IMG/VR virus record: IMGVR_UViG_2529292907_000015
Location: 1-41,886 of that record
DNA from: a virus
Lineage: Duplodnaviria; Heunggongvirae; Uroviricota; Caudoviricetes
DNA: 41,886 nucleotides
Direction: 5' to 3' (one strand)
The notes under the pieces are model-generated. The model saw nothing but the letters and a program-made list of their open reading frames with translations, did not search any database and had not been told where the DNA came from. The position numbers and the translations under genes are program-made. This document shows, piece by piece, positions 16,848-38,726 of this stretch (positions within the stretch are counted from its first letter, which is position 1; the number at the start of each line of letters is the position of its first letter).

Positions 16848-16907
16848 CAAATCCCTTTCATTTCTCAGTGTAAAACTACGCCATCCGTTATTTGCGGAGG
16901 TGAGGCT

Positions 16908-17123
16908 ATGAAATCCATGGACAAAATTTCAACGGGCATTGCCTACGGCACCTCCGCAGGCAGTGCTGGCTACTGGTTTTTACAGTGGCTTGATCAGGTC
17001 AGTCCGTCACAGTGGGCTGCGATTGGTGTACTTGGGAGTCTGGTTCTGGGCTTCCTGACTTATCTGACAAATCTGTACTTCAAAATCAGAGAAGACAAGC
17101 GTAAGGCTGCACGGGGAGAGTAA
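16908..17123 (+). CDS. S: holin, phage 21 S-type (pinholin) with dual-start motif
   Basis: 71-aa product [53 protein letters not shown]... matches S21 as recalled. Strong GGAGGTGAGG SD. Confidence 0.85.
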
Positions 17124-17127
17124 TTCA

Positions 17128-17442
17128 ATGACTCAAAACTATGAACTGATTGTGAAAGGGATCCGCAATTTTGAGAATAAAGTTACGGTAACTTTAGCGT
17201 TACGGGACAAAAAACGCTTTGACGGTGAAATTTTTGACCTGGACATCTCGCTGGACCGTGTTGAAGGTGCCGCGCTGGAGTTTTATGAGGCAGCAGCCAG
17301 AAGGAGCATCAGACAGGTCTTCCTGGATGTTGCTGCCGGGTTATGTGAAGGGGACGAGCTGTTGCCAGAAACGCGCCCCTGTTCAGAGGCGCGGTATACC
17401 ATAAAAATTAACAGTTCTGATAACTCGATTACAGGTTGTTAG
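17128..17442 (+). CDS. hypothetical protein between holin and endolysin (YdfR-like position)
   Basis: 104-aa ORF starting 5 nt after the holin stop. Confidence 0.5.
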   Translation: MTQNYELIVKGIRNFENKVTVTLALRDKKRFDGEIFDLDISLDRVEGAALEFYEAAARRSIRQVFLDVAAGLCEGDELLPETRPCSEARYTIKINSSDNSITGC

Positions 17443-17497
17443 CTTTTTGCAGTTGGCTTTCCAGTATCTTTCATTGGTAGCATCCTGATAAATATCC

Positions 17498-18031
17498 ATG
17501 AGCGCAAAAATCAAATACGGCCTGTCAGCTGCTGTTCTGGCGCTGATTGCTGCAGGCGCGTCTGCTCCTCAAATACTTGACCAGTTTCTGGATGAAAAAG
17601 AGGGTAACCACACTACGGCATACCGCGATGGTTCCGGTATATGGACCATCTGTCGTGGTGCCACAATGGTGGATGGTAAGCCCGTCATACCGGGAATGAA
17701 GCTGTCGAAGGAAAAATGCGACCAGGTTAACGCTATTGAACGTGATAAGGCGCTGGCATGGGTGGAGCGCAATATTAAAGTACCACTGACCGAACCACAG
17801 AAAGCGGGTATAGCGTCATTCTGTCCCTATAACATTGGCCCCGGTAAGTGTTTCCCGTCGACGTTTTATAAGCGGCTGAATGCCGGTGATCGTAAGGGTG
17901 CATGCGAGGCGATTCGCTGGTGGATAAAAGATGGTGGGCGCGATTGCCGCATACGTTCAAATAACTGCTATGGACAGGTTATTCGTCGTGACCAGGAAAG
18001 CGCATTAGCCTGTTGGGGGATAGATCAGTGA
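17498..18031 (+). CDS. R: SAR-endolysin (lysozyme, GH24-type)
   Basis: 177-aa ORF with an N-terminal hydrophobic signal-anchor-release segment ([15 protein letters not shown]). Lysozyme-like core. Downstream of the holin. Confidence 0.8.
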
Positions 18032-18495
18032 GCAGAGTCGCAGCGATTATTTATACTCTGGTTATCTGCACCATCGTCTGCCTGTCGTGGGCGGTCAATC
18101 ATTACCGTGATAACGCCATCGCCTACAAAGAACAGCGTGATAAAAAAGTCAGTGAGCTGAAGCAGGCGACCGCCACCATCGCTGACATGCAGCAGCGTCA
18201 GCGTGATGTTGCTGCGCTCGATGCAAAGTACTCGAGAGAATTAGCCAATGCGAAAGCTGAAAATGAAACCCTGCGCGCTGATGTTGCCGCTGGTCGTAAG
18301 CGCCTGCGGGTCAATGCCAGTTGCTCCGCAGCCGTGCGTGAAGCCACCGGACCCACCAGCGTGGATAATGCAACCAGCCCCCGACTGGCAGACACCGCTG
18401 AACGGGATTATTTCACCCTCAGAGAACGGTTGATGACGATGCAGAAGCAACTGGAAGGGGCACAGCTATACATTCGTGAGCAATGTCTCAGATAA
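18028..18495 (+). CDS. Rz: i-spanin Rz
   Basis: GTG start overlapping the endolysin stop (GTGA). N-terminal TM segment and coiled-coil periplasmic domain. Confidence 0.75.
18248..18433 (+). CDS. Rz1: o-spanin Rz1 (lipoprotein, embedded in Rz in the +1 frame)
   Basis: [22 protein letters not shown]... with a lipobox and Pro-rich mature part, similar to lambda Rz1 as recalled. Entirely nested inside Rz. Confidence 0.8.
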
Positions 18496-27135: not shown

Positions 27136-27840
27136 ATGTCCTCTAATTTTGAGCGTTCGCAACTGACGAAAATTATGATTTCGTCTGCACCGGTAACAGC
27201 AGAAACCCTGGATTCTGCCAGCTATCTTGGCCTGAGCTGTACAATCAAAGAGGTGCAGTTTACCGCAGGACAAAAGCAGGATATTGATGTCACCACGCTG
27301 TGTTCTGTTGAGCAGGAAAATATTAACGGCCTTGGGGCTGCTTCAGAGATTTCCATGTCAGGCAACTTTTATCTCAATGCTGCCCAGAACGCGTTGCGCA
27401 GTGCCTATGACAATGACACCACGTATGGCTTTAAAGTTATTTTTCCGTCAGGCAACGGATTTACCTTTATGGCAGAGGTGCGTCAGCATACCTGGTCTGC
27501 AGGAACCAATGGTGTTGTGGCTGCAACGTTTTCCCTGCGCCTGAAAGGTAAACCTGTGCTGACGACAGAGCCGCTGAAAGTGAAGGTCGATTTAAACAGC
27601 ACGCTGCGGGTTTCTTCCGGAGCGAAACTTGAAATGGCGGTTGAGGCTGCGGGTGGTGTGCCGCCTTATTCTTATGCTTGGAAAAAAGGTGGTTCTCCTG
27701 TTTCCGGACAGACGGCGGCAACGTTCAGTAAGGCATCAGCAGCATCCGGTGATGCCGGTGCGTATACCTGCGAGATTTCTGATTCAGCAAGCCCGGTTAA
27801 CAAGGTGACCTCCACTTCCTGCACTGTTACCGTCAGTTAA
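27136..27840 (+). CDS. V: major tail protein with C-terminal Ig-like domain
   Basis: ATG 27136 with a CAGGAGA SD (the ORF track opens at 27079). C-terminal Ig-like segment. Precedes the G/GT chaperone pair. Confidence 0.75.
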   Translation: MSSNFERSQLTKIMISSAPVTAETLDSASYLGLSCTIKEVQFTAGQKQDIDVTTLCSVEQENINGLGAASEISMSGNFYLNAAQNALRSAYDNDTTYGFKVIFPSGNGFTFMAEVRQHTWSAGTNGVVAATFSLRLKGKPVLTTEPLKVKVDLNSTLRVSSGAKLEMAVEAAGGVPPYSYAWKKGGSPVSGQTAATFSKASAASGDAGAYTCEISDSASPVNKVTSTSCTVTVS

Positions 27841-28337
27841 TGAGGATAGATGTGATGACTAAAAATATCCGTAATCTGGCACTGGCAACGATGTCGGGGT
27901 TTCGCCATAAAACCGTTGATGTGCCTGAATGGGAAGGGGCAACGGTTGTGTTACGGGAACCTTCTGCAGAAGCCTGGTTGCGCTGGCAGGAGATCGTTAA
28001 AGCCAGGGAAGATGATACATCGCCATCTGTTGCAGAGCGTGCCCGCCGAAATCTGGAGGCGGACGTTGAACTGTTCATTGATGTTCTGTGTGATACCGGG
28101 CTGCAACCCGTATTTTCAGAGGGTGATCGTGAACAGGTGATTGCCGTGTATGGTCCGGTGCATGCCCGGCTTCTTCGCCAGTCTCTGGAACTGATCAGTG
28201 ATGCCGGAGAGGTTAAAAAAAGTAGCGCTTCCGGGGATGCGTTTTCTGATGATGCTGGCGCTCAGGATGGGGCGCACATTGTCAGAGTTACGCCGGGAAA
28301 TGTCCGCATCAGAAATCATGATGTGGGCAGAATTTGA
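27840..28337 (+). CDS. G: tail assembly chaperone G
   Basis: ATG 27840 is coupled to the V stop; an alternative ATG at 27855 has a GAGGA SD. A7 slippery run at 28215-28221. The overlapping downstream ORF is in the +1 frame. Confidence 0.7.
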   Translation: MRIDVMTKNIRNLALATMSGFRHKTVDVPEWEGATVVLREPSAEAWLRWQEIVKAREDDTSPSVAERARRNLEADVELFIDVLCDTGLQPVFSEGDREQVIAVYGPVHARLLRQSLELISDAGEVKKSSASGDAFSDDAGAQDGAHIVRVTPGNVRIRNHDVGRI

Positions 28338-28527
28338 CAGGTTCAGCCCGCTGGGGGACGAACGGGCTGATATCCGGGCTGCCCAGATTGTTTCAGCTGT
28401 TTACGGTGCGCAGGGGGTCAAAGTGCCACTGAATGATGCGCTTCTTCAGTGGGAGAAGGAGCAGACAGAAGGCACCTCAGATCCATTTGCTGAGATTGAG
28501 AAGGCATTATTTGTTGCAGCTCGATGA
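28198..28527 (+). CDS. T-domain reading frame of the G-T frameshift fusion chaperone
   Basis: Frame opens at 28195 with no independent SD and overlaps the G 3' end. Conserved G/GT arrangement upstream of the tape measure gene. Confidence 0.6.
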   Translation: MMPERLKKVALPGMRFLMMLALRMGRTLSELRREMSASEIMMWAEFDRFSPLGDERADIRAAQIVSAVYGAQGVKVPLNDALLQWEKEQTEGTSDPFAEIEKALFVAAR

Positions 28528-28584
28528 TCTTTTCACTTTACTGGATTATTATTCCCACTTTATTGAGAAAGTAAGGAAACATTG

Positions 28585-28926
28585 ATGGAATTTTTACTTA
28601 TTTCAATAGTTTTGGGACTAATTCCAGCTATTATTGCGAAAAGCAAAGGTCGCTCATTTTTAGGATGGTGGGTATATGGTGCGATGATCTTTATTGTTGC
28701 TCTGGTTCATTCGCTAGTAATCCAAAGAGATGAGAAGGCACATGAACAACAAATGGTAAGCAATGGCATGAAGAAATGCCCTTACTGTGCGGAGTTGATC
28801 AAAGAAGAGGCTATTAAATGTAAGCATTGTGGTAGTGATTTAATTTGCAATGCAGATAGTTCCGTTTCACAAAAAACGGATGATGAATATCTTCAGGAAG
28901 CAAGGCGTAAGGCCGGACTTCTTTAA
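28585..28926 (+). CDS. membrane protein with C-terminal zinc-ribbon (moron)
   Basis: 113-aa product with two hydrophobic segments then CPYC...CKHC. AAGGAAA SD. AT-rich. Its own intrinsic terminator follows. Confidence 0.6.
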
Positions 28927-28935
28927 AGAATACAA

Positions 28936-28958
28936 AAACCGCTTCGGCGGTTTTTTTT
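28936..28958 (+). terminator. rho-independent terminator of the moron
   Basis: Stem CCGC/GCGG with loop TTCG, followed by T8. Confidence 0.75.
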
Positions 28959-28968
28959 CGTCCGGAGA

Positions 28969-31900
28969 ATGAGTGTGGCGACATTACGTGAACTGATTAT
29001 TAAAATCTCGGCAAACTCCCGGTCATTCCAGTCAGAGATCGCCCGGGCTTCGCGTATGGGGCAGGATTACTACCGCACCATGCAGAACGGAGGTCGACAG
29101 TCTGCTGCTGCATCCCGTGAAATGCGGCGTGCACTGGCAGAAGTGACGGATCAGATAAATACAGCTAAATCTTCGGCACTGAATATGGCGGGGGCATTTG
29201 CCGGGGCTTTTGCTACCGGTCATCTTATTTCTCTCGCCGATGAGTGGAATTCAGTAAATGCCCGTCTGAAGCAGGCCTCACAGTCCAGTGATGATTTTCA
29301 GGCATCACAGCGTGAATTAATGGCGATCAGCCAGAGAACGGGGACGGCGTTTTCTGATAACGCCAGCCTTTTTGCCCGTTCTGCAGCTTCCATGCGGGAG
29401 TATGGTTACAGTTCTGAGGAGGTACTGAAAGTCACCGAGGCGATCTCCACGGGCCTGAAATTATCCGGTGCCAGTACAGCAGAAGCCAGTTCAGTGATCA
29501 CGCAGTTCAGTCAGGCACTGGCGCAGGGAGTGCTGCGCGGTGAAGAGTTTAACTCGGTGAATGAGAACGGCGATCGTGTTATTCGTGCGCTGGCTGCGGG
29601 AATGGGGGTTGCCCGTAAGGATCTGAAGGCCATGGCGGATAACGGAAAGTTGACCGCCGATAAGGTTGTTCCTGCACTGATTAGTCAGCTTGGGGCATTA
29701 CGTGATGAATATGCGGCAATGCCTGATACGGTTTCATCCTCTGCAACCAAAGTTGAAAACGCCTTTATGGCCTGGGTTGGTGGTGCGAACGAGGCAAGCG
29801 GAGTGACAAAGACACTCACCGGGGTGTTGAATGGTGTTGCAGACAATATTGATACCGTGGCTACTGCAGCTGGCGCACTGGTTGCCGTCGGGGTAGCCCG
29901 ATATTTTGGCAATATGGCGTCGTCTGCTGGATCTGCAACTGCCGGATTAATTACTGCAGCCAGAAACGAAGTGGTTCTTGCTGAAGCGCAACTTCGGGGG
30001 ACACAGATAGCAACCGCCAGGGCGCGTGCGGCGGTTTATCGTGCGCAACAGGCGGTTGTTGCTGCTCGCGGTACCGAAAGGCAGGCCGCAGCAGAAGCGA
30101 AGCTGACAGCTGCCCAGGCGTCACTTACCCGTAATATTGCGGCCAGAACAGCGGCACAGACAACGCTGAATACTGTCACGTCAGTGGGGAGTCGTCTGTT
30201 AAGTGGTGCGCTGGGGCTGGTTGGTGGTGTGCCGGGACTCGTCATGCTGGGGGCGACGGCCTGGTACGCGATGTATCAGAATCAGGAGCAGGCCAGAGAA
30301 TCTGCACGCCAGTATGCCGCAACAATCGACGAAATTCGCCAGAAAACGTCGGCAATGTCGCTTCCTGAAGCGTCAGATAATGAGGAAAAGACGCGGCAGG
30401 CACTTGATGAGCAAAACAGGTTAATTGACGAGCAGAAAAGTAAGATTAAATCCTTACAGGAAAAAATTGCTGGCTATCAGTATGTGCTGGCAAACCCGGG
30501 CTGGACAACCGATAACGGTTTTATGATTAACCACATGACGTCGGTAAAAACTGTCACAGAAGGGCTTGCAGAAGCAACAAATCAACTGGCAGTTGAACAG
30601 TCCCGTCTCACACAAATGCAGGGCAAAGCGCAATCCATTCAGGATGTGCTTGCCGGGCTGGAGGAGCGACGGGTGGCGTTGATCCGTCAACAGGCAGCGG
30701 AACAAAACAAAGCGTATCAGTCCCTGTTGATCATGAATGGGCAGCATACCGAGTTTAATCGCCTTCTCGGGCTCGGTAATGAATTACTTCAGCAGCGACA
30801 GGGGCTGGTGAATGTACCGTTACGGCTACCACAGGCAACCCTGGATGATAAACAGCAGACCGCACTGAATAACAGCAAGCGCGAACTGGCTCTGTCCCGC
30901 CTGAAGGGGGAAGCGCGTGAGCGTGCCCGACTGGGCTATGCTGCGGATGATCTCGGCTTTGTGGGAGAGGCGTATCAGACAGCCAGACAGAATTATATCA
31001 ATAACTCACTGGATGCCTGGCGAAATAACCAGGCAAATAAACCGCATAAAAAACCGAAGCGGAAAAAACAGAGGATATTTATAAACGGCTGATTAAACAG
31101 CAAAAAGAACAGATAGCACTGGCAGGGCAGAATACTGAACTGGCTAAGATGAAATATCAGGTCAGTCAGGGCGAATTATCAACCCTGTCAGAAGCGCAGA
31201 AAAAAACGCTTTTGCAGAATGCAGCACTCATCGACCAGAAAAAGATTCGTGAGCAGCTTGCTGCGTATGAGAGCAGTCTGGCGGACAGTAATGCCAGTGC
31301 CCGGGCATCTGACGAAGCGCAGTTGCTGGGATATGGTGAAGGCTCACGGATGCGTGAACGACTCCAGGAAATGTGGAGTATCCGGCAGACGTTTGAGCAG
31401 AAAAATAACGAGCTGCTGAGACAGTATCAGGCCGGAGAAATTGAAGAAGCCCTGTGGAAACAGGAGAAAGAACTGAATAAAAAATATCTGGAAGAGCGTC
31501 TCAGCGATCAGCAGAATTATTATGCAAAGGCCGATGCTTTACGTAATAACTGGAATGCCGGACTCCAGGAGGGACTGACCAACTGGGCAGACAGTGCCAC
31601 CGATTATGCTTCACAGGCGGCAGATGCTGTCGTTTCCACGATGGACGGGCTGGTATCAAATATTTCCGATGCACTGGCCGGGAATGTTGTGGACTGGAGG
31701 AACTGGGGGAGTTCAGTTCTCCGGGAAGTTTCAAAAATTCTGATGAATGCAGCCATTGTTAACGGACTGAAATCACTCTCCGGTGCCGGAGGGTGGCTTG
31801 GTACGGTCGGCGGATGGATTTCGGGGGCAGTGGCAAACGCAAAAGGTGGTGTTTACACATCGGCAAATCTGAGTGCTTACAGTAACACTATTGTGGATAC

Positions 31901-32195
31901 ACCGACGTATTTTGCTTTTGCGAAAGGTGCCGGGTTGATGGGCGAGGCCGGGCCTGAAGCAATCATGCCACTGACACGGGCAGCGGACGGCTCTCTTGGG
32001 GTCAGGGCCATTGGAAATGTGAATGGTGGCGGTGGATTTGTTTATTCTCCCGTGTATCACATCAGCATTCAGAATCAAGGGAGCAATGGCGAGATAGATG
32101 CGCGCTCAGCCAGGGGACTGGTGGATCTGATCGACAGCAGGGTTGTGTCAATTATGCAGTCATCGCGTCGGGATGGAGGATTGTACAGTGCCTGA
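28969..32195 (+). CDS. H: tail tape measure protein, split into two reading frames near an A6 run
   Basis: ORF 28969..31092 (707 aa) has tape-measure-like N-terminal and coiled-coil regions. The next frame opens at 31050 and continues to 32195 with a Gly-rich C-terminal region. Inserting one A at 31048-31053 gives one continuous ORF. Confidence 0.75.
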
Positions 32196-38126: not shown

Positions 38127-38726
38127 ATGCGTAAATTATGTGCTGTTATTTTGTCCGCAGTAGTCTGGCAGGTCGCCGCTGCTACGCCAGCGAGTGCAGC
38201 AGAACATCAGTCCACGCTGAGCGCGGGGTATCTCCATGCCTCGACGAACGTTCCCGGTAGTGATGATCTGAACGGGATTAACGTGAAATACCGTTATGAG
38301 TTTACGGATGCGCTGGGGCTGATTACGTCCTTCAGTTATGCCAATGCTGAGGATGAGCAAAAAACGCGCTACAGCGATACCCGCTGGCATGAAGATTCCG
38401 TTCGTAACCGCTGGTTCAGCGTAATGGCGGGGCCGTCTGTACGCGTGAATGAATGGTTCAGCGCGTATGCGATGGTGGGTGTGGCTTACAGCCGTGTGTC
38501 GACTTTCTCCGGGGATTATCTCCGCGTAACTGACAACAAGGGGAAAACGCACGATGTGCTGACCGGAAGTGATGACGGTCGCCACAGCAACACGTCTCTG
38601 GCGTGGGGAGCTGGCGTGCAGTTTAACCCGACCGAATCCGTGGCCATTGATATTGCTTATGAAGGCTCCGGCAGTGGCGACTGGCGCACTGACGGTTTCA
38701 TCATGGGTGTCGGTTATAAGTTCTGA
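38127..38726 (+). CDS. lom: outer membrane protein Lom (Ail/Lom family)
   Basis: 199-aa ORF with a signal peptide and beta-barrel-like pattern ending in the aromatic C-terminus GVGYKF. Position is after J. Confidence 0.8.
   Translation: MRKLCAVILSAVVWQVAAATPASAAEHQSTLSAGYLHASTNVPGSDDLNGINVKYRYEFTDALGLITSFSYANAEDEQKTRYSDTRWHEDSVRNRWFSVMAGPSVRVNEWFSAYAMVGVAYSRVSTFSGDYLRVTDNKGKTHDVLTGSDDGRHSNTSLAWGAGVQFNPTESVAIDIAYEGSGSGDWRTDGFIMGVGYKF

Follow-up and report, generated by a model that had tools for sequence, protein, structure and literature searches.

The name moron was first given to HK97 gene 15, whose product, gp15, is an inner-membrane protein expressed from the prophage (PMC3594210). Gp15 blocks DNA entry of phages HK97 and HK75 while leaving the receptor untouched, and acts after adsorption in a manner that depends on the tail region of the incoming phage (PMC3594210). 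The Imm protein of phage T4 is reported in a 2026 preprint to bind the tape-measure protein (TMP) gp29 and to block its pore-forming step and genome translocation, residues R33 and W50 being important, and the authors of that study liken Imm to colicin immunity and to gp15 (bioRxiv 10.64898/2026.03.06.709160). Here we describe a gene for a protein of 113 amino acids (aa) in a phage DNA stretch of 41,886 nucleotides (nt; IMG/VR record IMGVR_UViG_2529292907_000015, taken at its full length and termed the window below), which by its gene content is a lambdoid, HK97-type E. coli prophage. The gene lies in the slot between the tail-chaperone reading frame T and the tape-measure gene H (the T|H slot). 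We are highly confident that it is a real, selected, accessory gene of the moron type. By analogy with the systems above, we propose with moderate confidence that it encodes a prophage-expressed inner-membrane superinfection exclusion protein directed against the entry of DNA by way of the TMP.

The left neighbour of the moron unit is T (28198–28527, plus strand), the reading frame for the C-terminal part of the G-T frameshift product (Phage_tail_T, 2.3e-20; phrog_337/14766), whose stop codon TGA (28525–28527) overlaps the predicted −35 element described below. The right neighbour is H (28975–31092, plus strand, within an open reading frame (ORF) from 28969), which matches Pfam TMP_3 and Phage_HK97_TLTM and likely starts at GTG 28975 (MATLREL..., as in relatives). 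Together with the Phage_TAC_1 match of the tail-chaperone gene G (from 27840), these assignments confirm the location between chaperone and tape-measure genes that had been proposed from the bare sequence (hereafter the original prediction). The moron coding sequence (plus strand) runs from ATG 28585 to TAA 28926; this start is preferred to the upstream TTG at 28582 of the ORF list because homologues begin with ME. A Shine-Dalgarno sequence (AAGGA, 28573–28577, plus strand) stands 7 nt 5′ of the ATG. The GC content of the gene is 0.38 as against 0.52 for its flanks (0.35–0.40 in 200-nt windows across 28500–28999, and 0.51–0.55 on either side), and the same contrast is seen in the Cronobacter, Atlantibacter and Edwardsiella copies.

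The encoded protein has two hydrophobic segments (aa 1–22 and 23–48, Kyte–Doolittle), which the AlphaFold2 (AF2) model (mean predicted local distance difference test score 76) folds into a helical hairpin of helices 2–21 and 25–45. Transmembrane helix 1 (TM1, approximately aa 3–18) and TM2 (approximately aa 25–46) are joined by an invariant loop, K-x-KGRSF (aa 19–25). The hairpin is followed by a helix at aa 50–59, the zinc ribbon at aa 62–86, with short paired strands in the model (DSSP, 62–64 and 71–73), and a terminal helix at aa 99–109 within the variable tail. The ribbon, encoded at 28768–28842 (plus strand), contains the CPYC...CKHC motif and matches Pfam Zn_ribbon_3 (PF13248) over aa 62–86 (E 1.1e-8, 34.7 bits against a cut-off of 27). 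Among 27 diverse family members, the four ribbon cysteines (C65, C68, C79, and C82) are invariant, as are G11, P14, A15, A18, K21, G22, R23, F25, W28, W29, Y31, G32, F36, A39, and H42. The AT-rich insert, its own Shine-Dalgarno sequence, and a 113-aa product with two transmembrane (TM) segments and a CPYC...CKHC ribbon, all claimed in the original prediction, are thereby borne out by composition, hydropathy, the AF2 model and the Pfam match. We consider the product a predicted membrane protein which, on the model, would be no part of the virion.

The protein has 1623 homologues in a 90%-clustered protein collection and matches phrog_8436 at 2e-50, a group listed in PHROG with function unknown. 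The ratio of non-synonymous to synonymous change (dN/dS) against diverged orthologues is 0.08 and 0.12, with synonymous differences of 52–69% and non-synonymous differences of 7–21%, and the ribbon and hairpin are the most constrained parts. These comparisons point to strong purifying selection; a chance ORF is rejected by the dN/dS range together with the number of homologues. Searches for a described function yield little. A PADLOC-DB 2.0 scan returns just two marginal matches, both on the ribbon region (E 1e-3 and 7e-3), the NCBIfam scan of the protein gives no informative match (marginal zinc-ribbon ones at most), and a Foldseek search of the AF2 model against the PDB, combined with a profile search of PDB sequences, retrieves generic zinc fingers or ribosomal bL32, all non-significant. 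Neither a PADLOC model nor a solved structure exists for the family.

The accessory status of the gene follows from how the T|H slot is occupied elsewhere. Among 5426 complete E. coli genomes, the slot is uninterrupted in 843, holds the zinc-ribbon moron in 46, and holds the HK97 gp15 moron in 6. Eleven sequenced E. coli phages (including vB_EcoS-640R1, phi467, Evi, and PhiR49_2) have flanks 96–97% identical to those of the window and are about 400 bp shorter. The extra DNA relative to such insert-less relatives is thus about 400 bp, roughly 28519–28934, with the hairpin described below lying outside the missing part; in the insert-less alignment hardly anything separates T from the hairpin and H. 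Phages with a 98%-identical TMP and no moron have been isolated as phages. The slot of HK022 is a 19-nt T-H gap with neither moron nor hairpin, and that of HK97 and HK544 is taken by the unrelated gp15 moron. Because relatives and genomes with the same junction carry no moron, the gene is dispensable cargo and not a tail component; the comparison with insert-less relatives, which the original prediction had named as a check on its claim of accessory cargo, comes out in favour of that claim. The 46 E. coli copies comprise three sequence variants, of about 99%, 88%, and 83.5% identity. We note that in an 88%-identity copy (L003 6001–6433, E. coli 2014C-3075; hit H31), which is not annotated, deletions of 1 nt and 6 nt remove the first CxxC; by its sequence, this variant is a decayed copy in the same slot.

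A moron is reportedly recognized (Juhala et al. 2000; Cumby et al. 2012) by extra DNA between adjacent genes, a deviant composition, its own promoter and terminator, and expression from the prophage. At the present locus we find extra DNA between otherwise adjacent genes, a deviant base composition, and a terminator, the last being present in insert-less junctions as well.

The gene is also an old resident of its slot. In a first IMG/VR scan, which returned 252 relatives, the best 80 (61–100% identity) were examined and 80 of 80 lie between T and H homologues. A second scan yielded at least 549 viral copies and listed 30 more T|H loci; since the two scans share contigs, 110 is the upper count of distinct T|H loci. 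The same arrangement is found in Cronobacter prophages and in Salmonella phage FSL SP-016. The more closely a moron resembles the window copy in identity, the more closely do V, G, T, and H of its locus (Spearman rho 0.85–0.90), which does not hold for J, and where T is 48–66% and H 45–78% identical, the moron is 61–70% identical. The constant slot and the parallel identities indicate that the moron, when present, has been co-inherited with the V-G-T-H block over a long divergence. On these sequence relationships it is a long-standing, frequently lost resident of the tail module and no recent arrival, and the notion of a one-off insertion, implicit in the original prediction, does not survive. 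In one Cronobacter locus (L007 6343–9289), the prophage is disrupted directly after the moron: a 651-aa product matching both HK97_TLTM and IMS/IMS_C (UmuC-like) comes next, followed by non-tail genes, and the TMP there is apparently truncated or fused.

Signals for expression surround the gene. A predicted sigma-70-type promoter (28524–28552, plus strand), recognized by phylogenetic footprinting, comprises a −35 element ATGATC (28524–28529), a 17-nt spacer, and a −10 element TATTAT (28547–28552). It corresponds to a pair of hexamers, 17 nt apart and located at −61 to −32 from the ATG, that is conserved across 57 unique orthologous upstream regions; the first reads xTGACx (mostly GTGACA) and the second TAGGAT, which in the E. 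coli clade becomes TATTAT or TATGAT. The two hexamers have an information content of 1.18 and 1.54 bits, compared with 0.46 for the spacer and 0.30–0.37 for the surrounding intergenic DNA. A shuffled control with the same anchoring reaches 0.32 and 0.55 bits, and an unanchored MAFFT alignment gives the same two peaks. A consensus promoter scan called nothing upstream of the moron, because the −35 of the window matches the consensus at just 3 of 6 positions. The upstream hexamer overlaps the last codons and the stop of T, and the need to preserve these codons may account in part for its conservation; the downstream hexamer lies wholly in intergenic DNA and retains A2 and T6, the critical positions of a −10 element.

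At the other end, an intrinsic-terminator-like hairpin with a T-run (28934–28958, plus strand) is located 8 nt past the stop codon. The stem AAAAACCGC, the loop UUCG, and the returning strand GCGGUUUUU occupy 28934–28955, and the T-run extends to 28958. The form is that of a textbook terminator, with a 9-bp stem, a C(UUCG)G tetraloop and a T8 tract (an A5 run upstream makes the hairpin symmetrical), while its folding energy of −12.2 kcal/mol (z = −1.5) is by itself unexceptional. Of the 46 unique short orthologues, 45 are followed by a GC-rich hairpin and T-run, as are 20 of the 28 long ones, and the stems vary by compensating changes (CCGC/GCGG, CCCGC/GCGGG, and CUCGC/GCGGG). The insert-less phages have the same element at their T-H junction, as do the 843 empty E. 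coli junctions, and it is identical in insert-less phage 640R1 and in the 83.5%-identity variant with its diverged coding sequence. Either the empty junctions are deletion derivatives that retained the terminator, or the terminator belongs to the slot. Of the original prediction of an own, strong terminator, the hairpin and T8 tract stand; its being private to the insert does not, and its folding energy is not out of the ordinary. The related claim of a self-contained unit fares similarly, being supported by the conserved −35/−10-like pair upstream, which is a prediction, and weakened by the hairpin common to insert-less junctions. As read from the sequence, the unit has the full layout of a promoter (predicted), Shine-Dalgarno sequence, ORF, and terminator.

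A terminator within a late operon would be tolerable in lytic growth because the phage encodes a Q antiterminator, as reasoned from lambda biology. The occurrence of the hairpin AACCGCTTCGGCGGTTTTTTTT between T and H in tail operons without any moron (L001 3690–3735; 843 E. coli genomes) is a curiosity in its own right; in these operons it may mark a site from which a moron was lost, or it may serve as a fixed landing pad where cassettes are exchanged. Two sub-threshold Rfam matches over the 3′ end of the ORF and the terminator hairpin (28855–28957), to rsmX (24.7 bits versus 56) and isrK (18.1 versus 50), were judged to be due to chance.

Beyond the T|H slot, the protein belongs to a family with 1693 cluster representatives at 50% identity (E ≤ 1e-10), for whose members NCBI has no name beyond 'zinc ribbon domain-containing protein'. 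Residues 1–86, with the two-helix hairpin and the Cys4 ribbon, form the conserved core, whereas the tail varies and members range from 87 to 471 aa. Longer relatives are located between K and I of lambda-like tails in Atlantibacter, between L and K in Edwardsiella, 30–95 nt upstream of other TMP types (L116, L125, and L160), directly downstream of the TMP gene and before a DNA_circ_N gene in Mu-like myophage tails (L148 and L150), and directly downstream of the TMP gene and before a Lom-like gene (L166). In temperate phages of Pseudomonas aeruginosa, relatives are again placed between chaperone and TMP genes (L177 and L179). In at least four tail architectures, phage-borne members thus adjoin tape-measure or tail-tip genes or are separated from them by no more than a few small genes, and nearly all phage loci whose context was examined are in tail modules, most of them beside the TMP gene. 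The full-text literature contains no paper found by us that joins a zinc ribbon with a moron, a tape measure or superinfection exclusion.

Several of the longer relatives have neighbours or domains of their own. A Pfam scan of ten long members detects only zinc ribbons and one fusion to FliL. Of the two rare fusion proteins, P0250 and P0233, one architecture consists of the two TM helices and ribbon followed by a third TM helix and a periplasmic FliL domain, and the other places a signal-peptide-bearing 200-aa domain ahead of the module. In variants with a third TM helix, that helix is flanked by basic residues towards the ribbon, which points to a cytoplasmic ribbon, and the FliL fusion points the same way. 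At L120 and L137, a 178-aa variant is followed directly, with no terminator, by a small ORF with a lipoprotein signal (MKQIIISLVVLVLAGCSS...); the pair could be a two-gene moron, and the small ORF may be a Cor/Llp-like exclusion lipoprotein. At L155, L158, and L159, a 179-aa variant likewise has no terminator, and a small ORF starting MKKLKIVLFF... comes after a short gap. The L166 locus (2516–6847) is a moron cluster, in which the TMP gene (phrog_24) is followed by a 168-aa zinc-ribbon family member and then by the gene for a Lom-like outer-membrane protein.

An annotated counterpart is gp065 of Pseudomonas phage YMC11/02/R656, which RefSeq names 'immunity to superinfection'. This protein matches Imm_superinfect (66.8 bits, E 1.6e-18), carries a zinc ribbon in addition, and is encoded between the chaperone and TMP genes; further proteins with the Imm_superinfect plus ribbon architecture exist. 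Aligned to gp065 by hhalign, our family profile gives a probability of 97.8% (E 7e-13) over a span that includes both hairpin and ribbon. When the comparison with the Imm_superinfect plus ribbon proteins is confined to the ribbon, E is 1.6e-21. Confined to the hairpin, the score is 22.1 (P 5.6e-4, probability 30%), a value reached by 0 of 100 column shuffles (mean 10.1, maximum 20.0), with a reversed control at 11. By these profile comparisons the ribbons are clearly homologous, and the hairpins are related only suggestively.

According to our preferred reading, superinfection exclusion, the protein would be made in the lysogen from its own predicted promoter and, during lytic growth, also by Q-antiterminated read-through. 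It would insert into the inner membrane, with the ribbon probably cytoplasmic, and would stop superinfecting siphophages with a related TMP from opening their inner-membrane DNA conduit, such that exclusion would take place after adsorption. The window TMP has a hydrophobic, TM-like segment at aa 409–435 (by hydropathy), which would be of the kind proposed to form the DNA conduit, and the natural targets would be the abundant phages that have a 98%-identical TMP and no moron. The zinc ribbon could mediate oligomerisation or hold a cytoplasmic partner. A wider proposal, which we put forward tentatively and hold to be rather doubtful, is that the family as a whole constitutes widespread TMP-cognate immunity genes: an Imm-like hairpin plus ribbon would be encoded beside the TMP gene and diverge with it in the way of colicin/immunity pairs, each prophage excluding phages that share its conduit type and possibly shielding the producer.

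A number of observations weigh against superinfection exclusion. The moron protein has no sequence similarity to gp15 (BLASTP E 0.30 over 11 residues), and neither the window protein nor the 27 family members match Pfam Imm_superinfect (PF14373), even at E ≤ 1; the gathering score of that model is 27.9 bits, and T4 Imm and the Pseudomonas homologue score 58 and 67 bits, respectively. By sequence, then, the protein falls outside Imm_superinfect yet appears to share the architecture of that family. It is chiefly the zinc ribbon that makes the profile match to the Pseudomonas protein strong, and T4 Imm, when its profile is compared directly, gives no significant result (probability 4%), the weak alignment pairing P26, A30, and R33-G34 of Imm with the invariant P14, A18, and K21-G22 of the family. 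The hints on topology conflict, since the signal-peptide fusion points in the direction opposite to a cytoplasmic ribbon, and the invariant K-x-KGRSF loop, which a cytoplasmic ribbon would place in the periplasm, would there be unusually basic and at odds with the positive-inside rule. The predicted −35 of the window agrees with consensus at only half of its positions (3/6). In genomic terms, some relatives are found outside prophage tail modules (in a chromosomal island of Pantoea and at an integrase-linked locus of Desulfobaccales), and tail-gene slots are general hot spots for morons, so that adjacency to the TMP gene may reflect insertion tolerance only. Finally, the T|H loci were found via the moron itself and represent few deep clades, for which co-inheritance is shown and co-evolution is unproven.

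How the evidence bears on other functions is best seen from the protein outward. A small protein with two TM helices and small-xxx-small motifs (G11, A15, and A18; G32 and A39) might be an abortive-infection effector, whose hairpin would oligomerise to a pore or depolarise the membrane when the cytoplasmic ribbon and tail sense infection, killing the cell before phage release. The extreme conservation of the hairpin next to variable C-terminal tails resembles a membrane effector joined to a variable sensor, and T4 Imm impaired cell growth at higher concentrations of the inducer IPTG (isopropyl β-D-1-thiogalactopyranoside), which its authors ascribe to probable toxicity (bioRxiv 10.64898/2026.03.06.709160). 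We nevertheless regard killing as unlikely: no PADLOC model matches, there is no partner gene, the nearest characterised analogues (gp15 by slot and Imm by architecture) exclude rather than kill, and the association with TMP and tail-tip genes would be unexpected for a generic module. Homology and context, as far as sequence can tell, favour superinfection exclusion over abortive infection. The sheer size of the family (1693 clusters), its chromosomal copies outside recognisable prophage tails, its fusions to unrelated domains such as FliL, and the presence of a Lom moron in the same window might suggest lysogenic conversion unrelated to defence, in which a small membrane regulator, like Lom or Bor, would act on a host envelope function (transport, stress tolerance or colonisation). 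The at least 549 viral copies, the examined loci being nearly all in tail modules, and the homology to proteins of Imm_superinfect plus ribbon architecture speak against this, and we think it improbable to much the same degree.

The position of the gene within the late operon and directly beside the TMP gene, a divergence that tracks that of the TMP, and the TM-like segment of the latter are what one would also expect if a late-made protein neutralised the pore-forming segment of its own TMP before tail packing, with exclusion by the lysogen as a by-product. The G/GT chaperones already shield the TMP, which counts against such protection of the producer cell. So do the phages with a 98%-identical TMP that were isolated without the moron and the 843 genomes with an empty junction, and the possession of its own (predicted) promoter and terminator suggests that the gene is expressed independently of the late programme; despite the colicin-immunity analogy drawn for Imm (bioRxiv 10.64898/2026.03.06.709160), we consider this quite improbable. 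A structural or assembly component of the tail, conserved in the lineage, could account for a fixed tail-module position across T and H proteins that are only 45–78% identical. It is hardly credible, given a predicted integral membrane protein with deviant GC content and its own expression signals, which is absent from isolated phages with near-identical tails, from HK022 and from the 843 genomes, and which is replaced by an unrelated gene in HK97. Conservation as a structural part of related tail modules was the finding that the original prediction had named as speaking against it; conservation in tail modules is indeed approached, whereas a structural component the protein is not. A role in lysis, as a holin, was also considered and rejected, because the lysis cassette is at about 17–18.5 kb, distant from the moron; it was placed by reference to an annotated relative (L181; holin, lysozyme, and lysis protein at 16848–18480), and ORFs of matching size are present there in the window.

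The remainder of the window has the gene order of a prophage. The integrase (1–1020) and the CI-type repressor (6287–7060; HTH_3 and Peptidase_S24) are on the minus strand, the Q antiterminator is at approximately 15.4–16.1 kb (about 15423–16111; Pfam match), and the HK97-type head and tail genes are downstream of it, with the major tail protein at 27136–27840. Downstream of J is the gene for the Ail/Lom outer-membrane protein (38127–38726; Ail_Lom, 5.7e-124), a second classical moron of this prophage, with the tail-fibre genes alongside it.

Three of the genes mentioned contain single-base deletions. The A-run at the end of G (28214–28220) is A7 in the window and A8 in relatives L001, L004, and L025. 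The A8 version reads A AAA AAG TAG, a classical −1 slippery heptamer just before the G stop, with T in the −1 frame; in the A7 version, G lacks its stop and extends to 28337 (165 aa), and T drops out of the −1 frame. Either the A7 is due to a sequencing error in the homopolymer, or G/GT expression is broken by a mutation. At 31040–31055, the tape-measure gene falls into two parts: compared with L001 and L003 (3228 nt, 1075 aa), it has lost 6 nt in frame and, by a further deletion, 1 nt (AAAAAGACC to AAAAAACC), and the frame, broken near 31052, gives a product of 707 aa and a separate ORF (31149–32195) of 348 aa. The Q antiterminator is apparently broken by a 1-nt deletion as well, its first ~50 residues (MNNQYLQFVREQ...) being in one frame and its Pfam match (profile positions 51–217) in the ORF at 15578–16111. 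With three such deletions, in G, the TMP and Q, the assembly may undercall bases, or the prophage may be decaying to a cryptic state in which only self-transcribed morons are still expressed.

The individual gene is ordinary moron cargo, and if it confers no exclusion it is an ordinary uncharacterised moron. At the level of the family there are hundreds of copies, most of those examined adjoining the TMP gene across several tail types; they are co-inherited with the TMP, and their architecture ties them to a class of proteins reported to bind TMPs. This pattern is a concrete and testable lead on how prophages might block DNA entry at the inner membrane. If the family acts on the TMP, as reported for T4 Imm, then blockade of the inner-membrane TMP conduit would be a general prophage strategy, used by proteins with and without detectable similarity. 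The small membrane protein and the adjacent TMP would form a compact, testable pair for the study of how siphophage DNA crosses the inner membrane, and would aid in predicting the resistance of lysogens to therapeutic or competing phages. Were TMP-cognate immunity to prove true, the gene adjacent to the TMP gene could serve to predict the specificity of exclusion among temperate sipho- and Mu-like phages.

How, then, does the locus compare with the systems from which we started? HK97 gp15 is encoded at exactly this position of an HK97-type tail, with the G/GT chaperone genes on one side and the tape-measure gene on the other, and its gene is likewise AT-rich, has a Shine-Dalgarno sequence, and has a hairpin and T-run directly 3′, before H. 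Gp15 differs in being a 62-aa protein with a single TM helix and no zinc ribbon, in having the chromosomal YebO proteins as its kin, and in being rarer in E. coli genomes (6 versus 46 for the zinc-ribbon moron). The gp065-type proteins share the order of membrane hairpin, linker, CPxCAE...C(K/R)xCG ribbon, and variable tail, as well as the chaperone|TMP slot in a temperate siphophage, and they have a similar TM1 motif, (L/I)PAxIA, ahead of a basic loop and, in TM2, a GW...AL motif. The stretch between the two helices is about 10 residues shorter in the window family, and the C-terminal domains are not alike; for the gp065-type proteins themselves, the function given is no more than an annotation transferred from T4 Imm. 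T4 Imm is, like the predicted moron protein, a small inner-membrane protein, but has no zinc ribbon, is an early gene product of a virulent myophage, and is not encoded beside its TMP gene. Pore-forming colicin/immunity pairs offer an analogy only, with no homology, in that the gene for a small membrane protein stands beside, and apparently diverges with, the gene for a membrane-inserting protein, which the small protein may neutralise. In sum, a moron in the T|H slot that encodes a small inner-membrane protein is a known arrangement, and the protein family found here is itself uncharacterised: the slot and the logic are classical, as in HK97 gene 15, and the cargo is drawn from a large, unstudied family.

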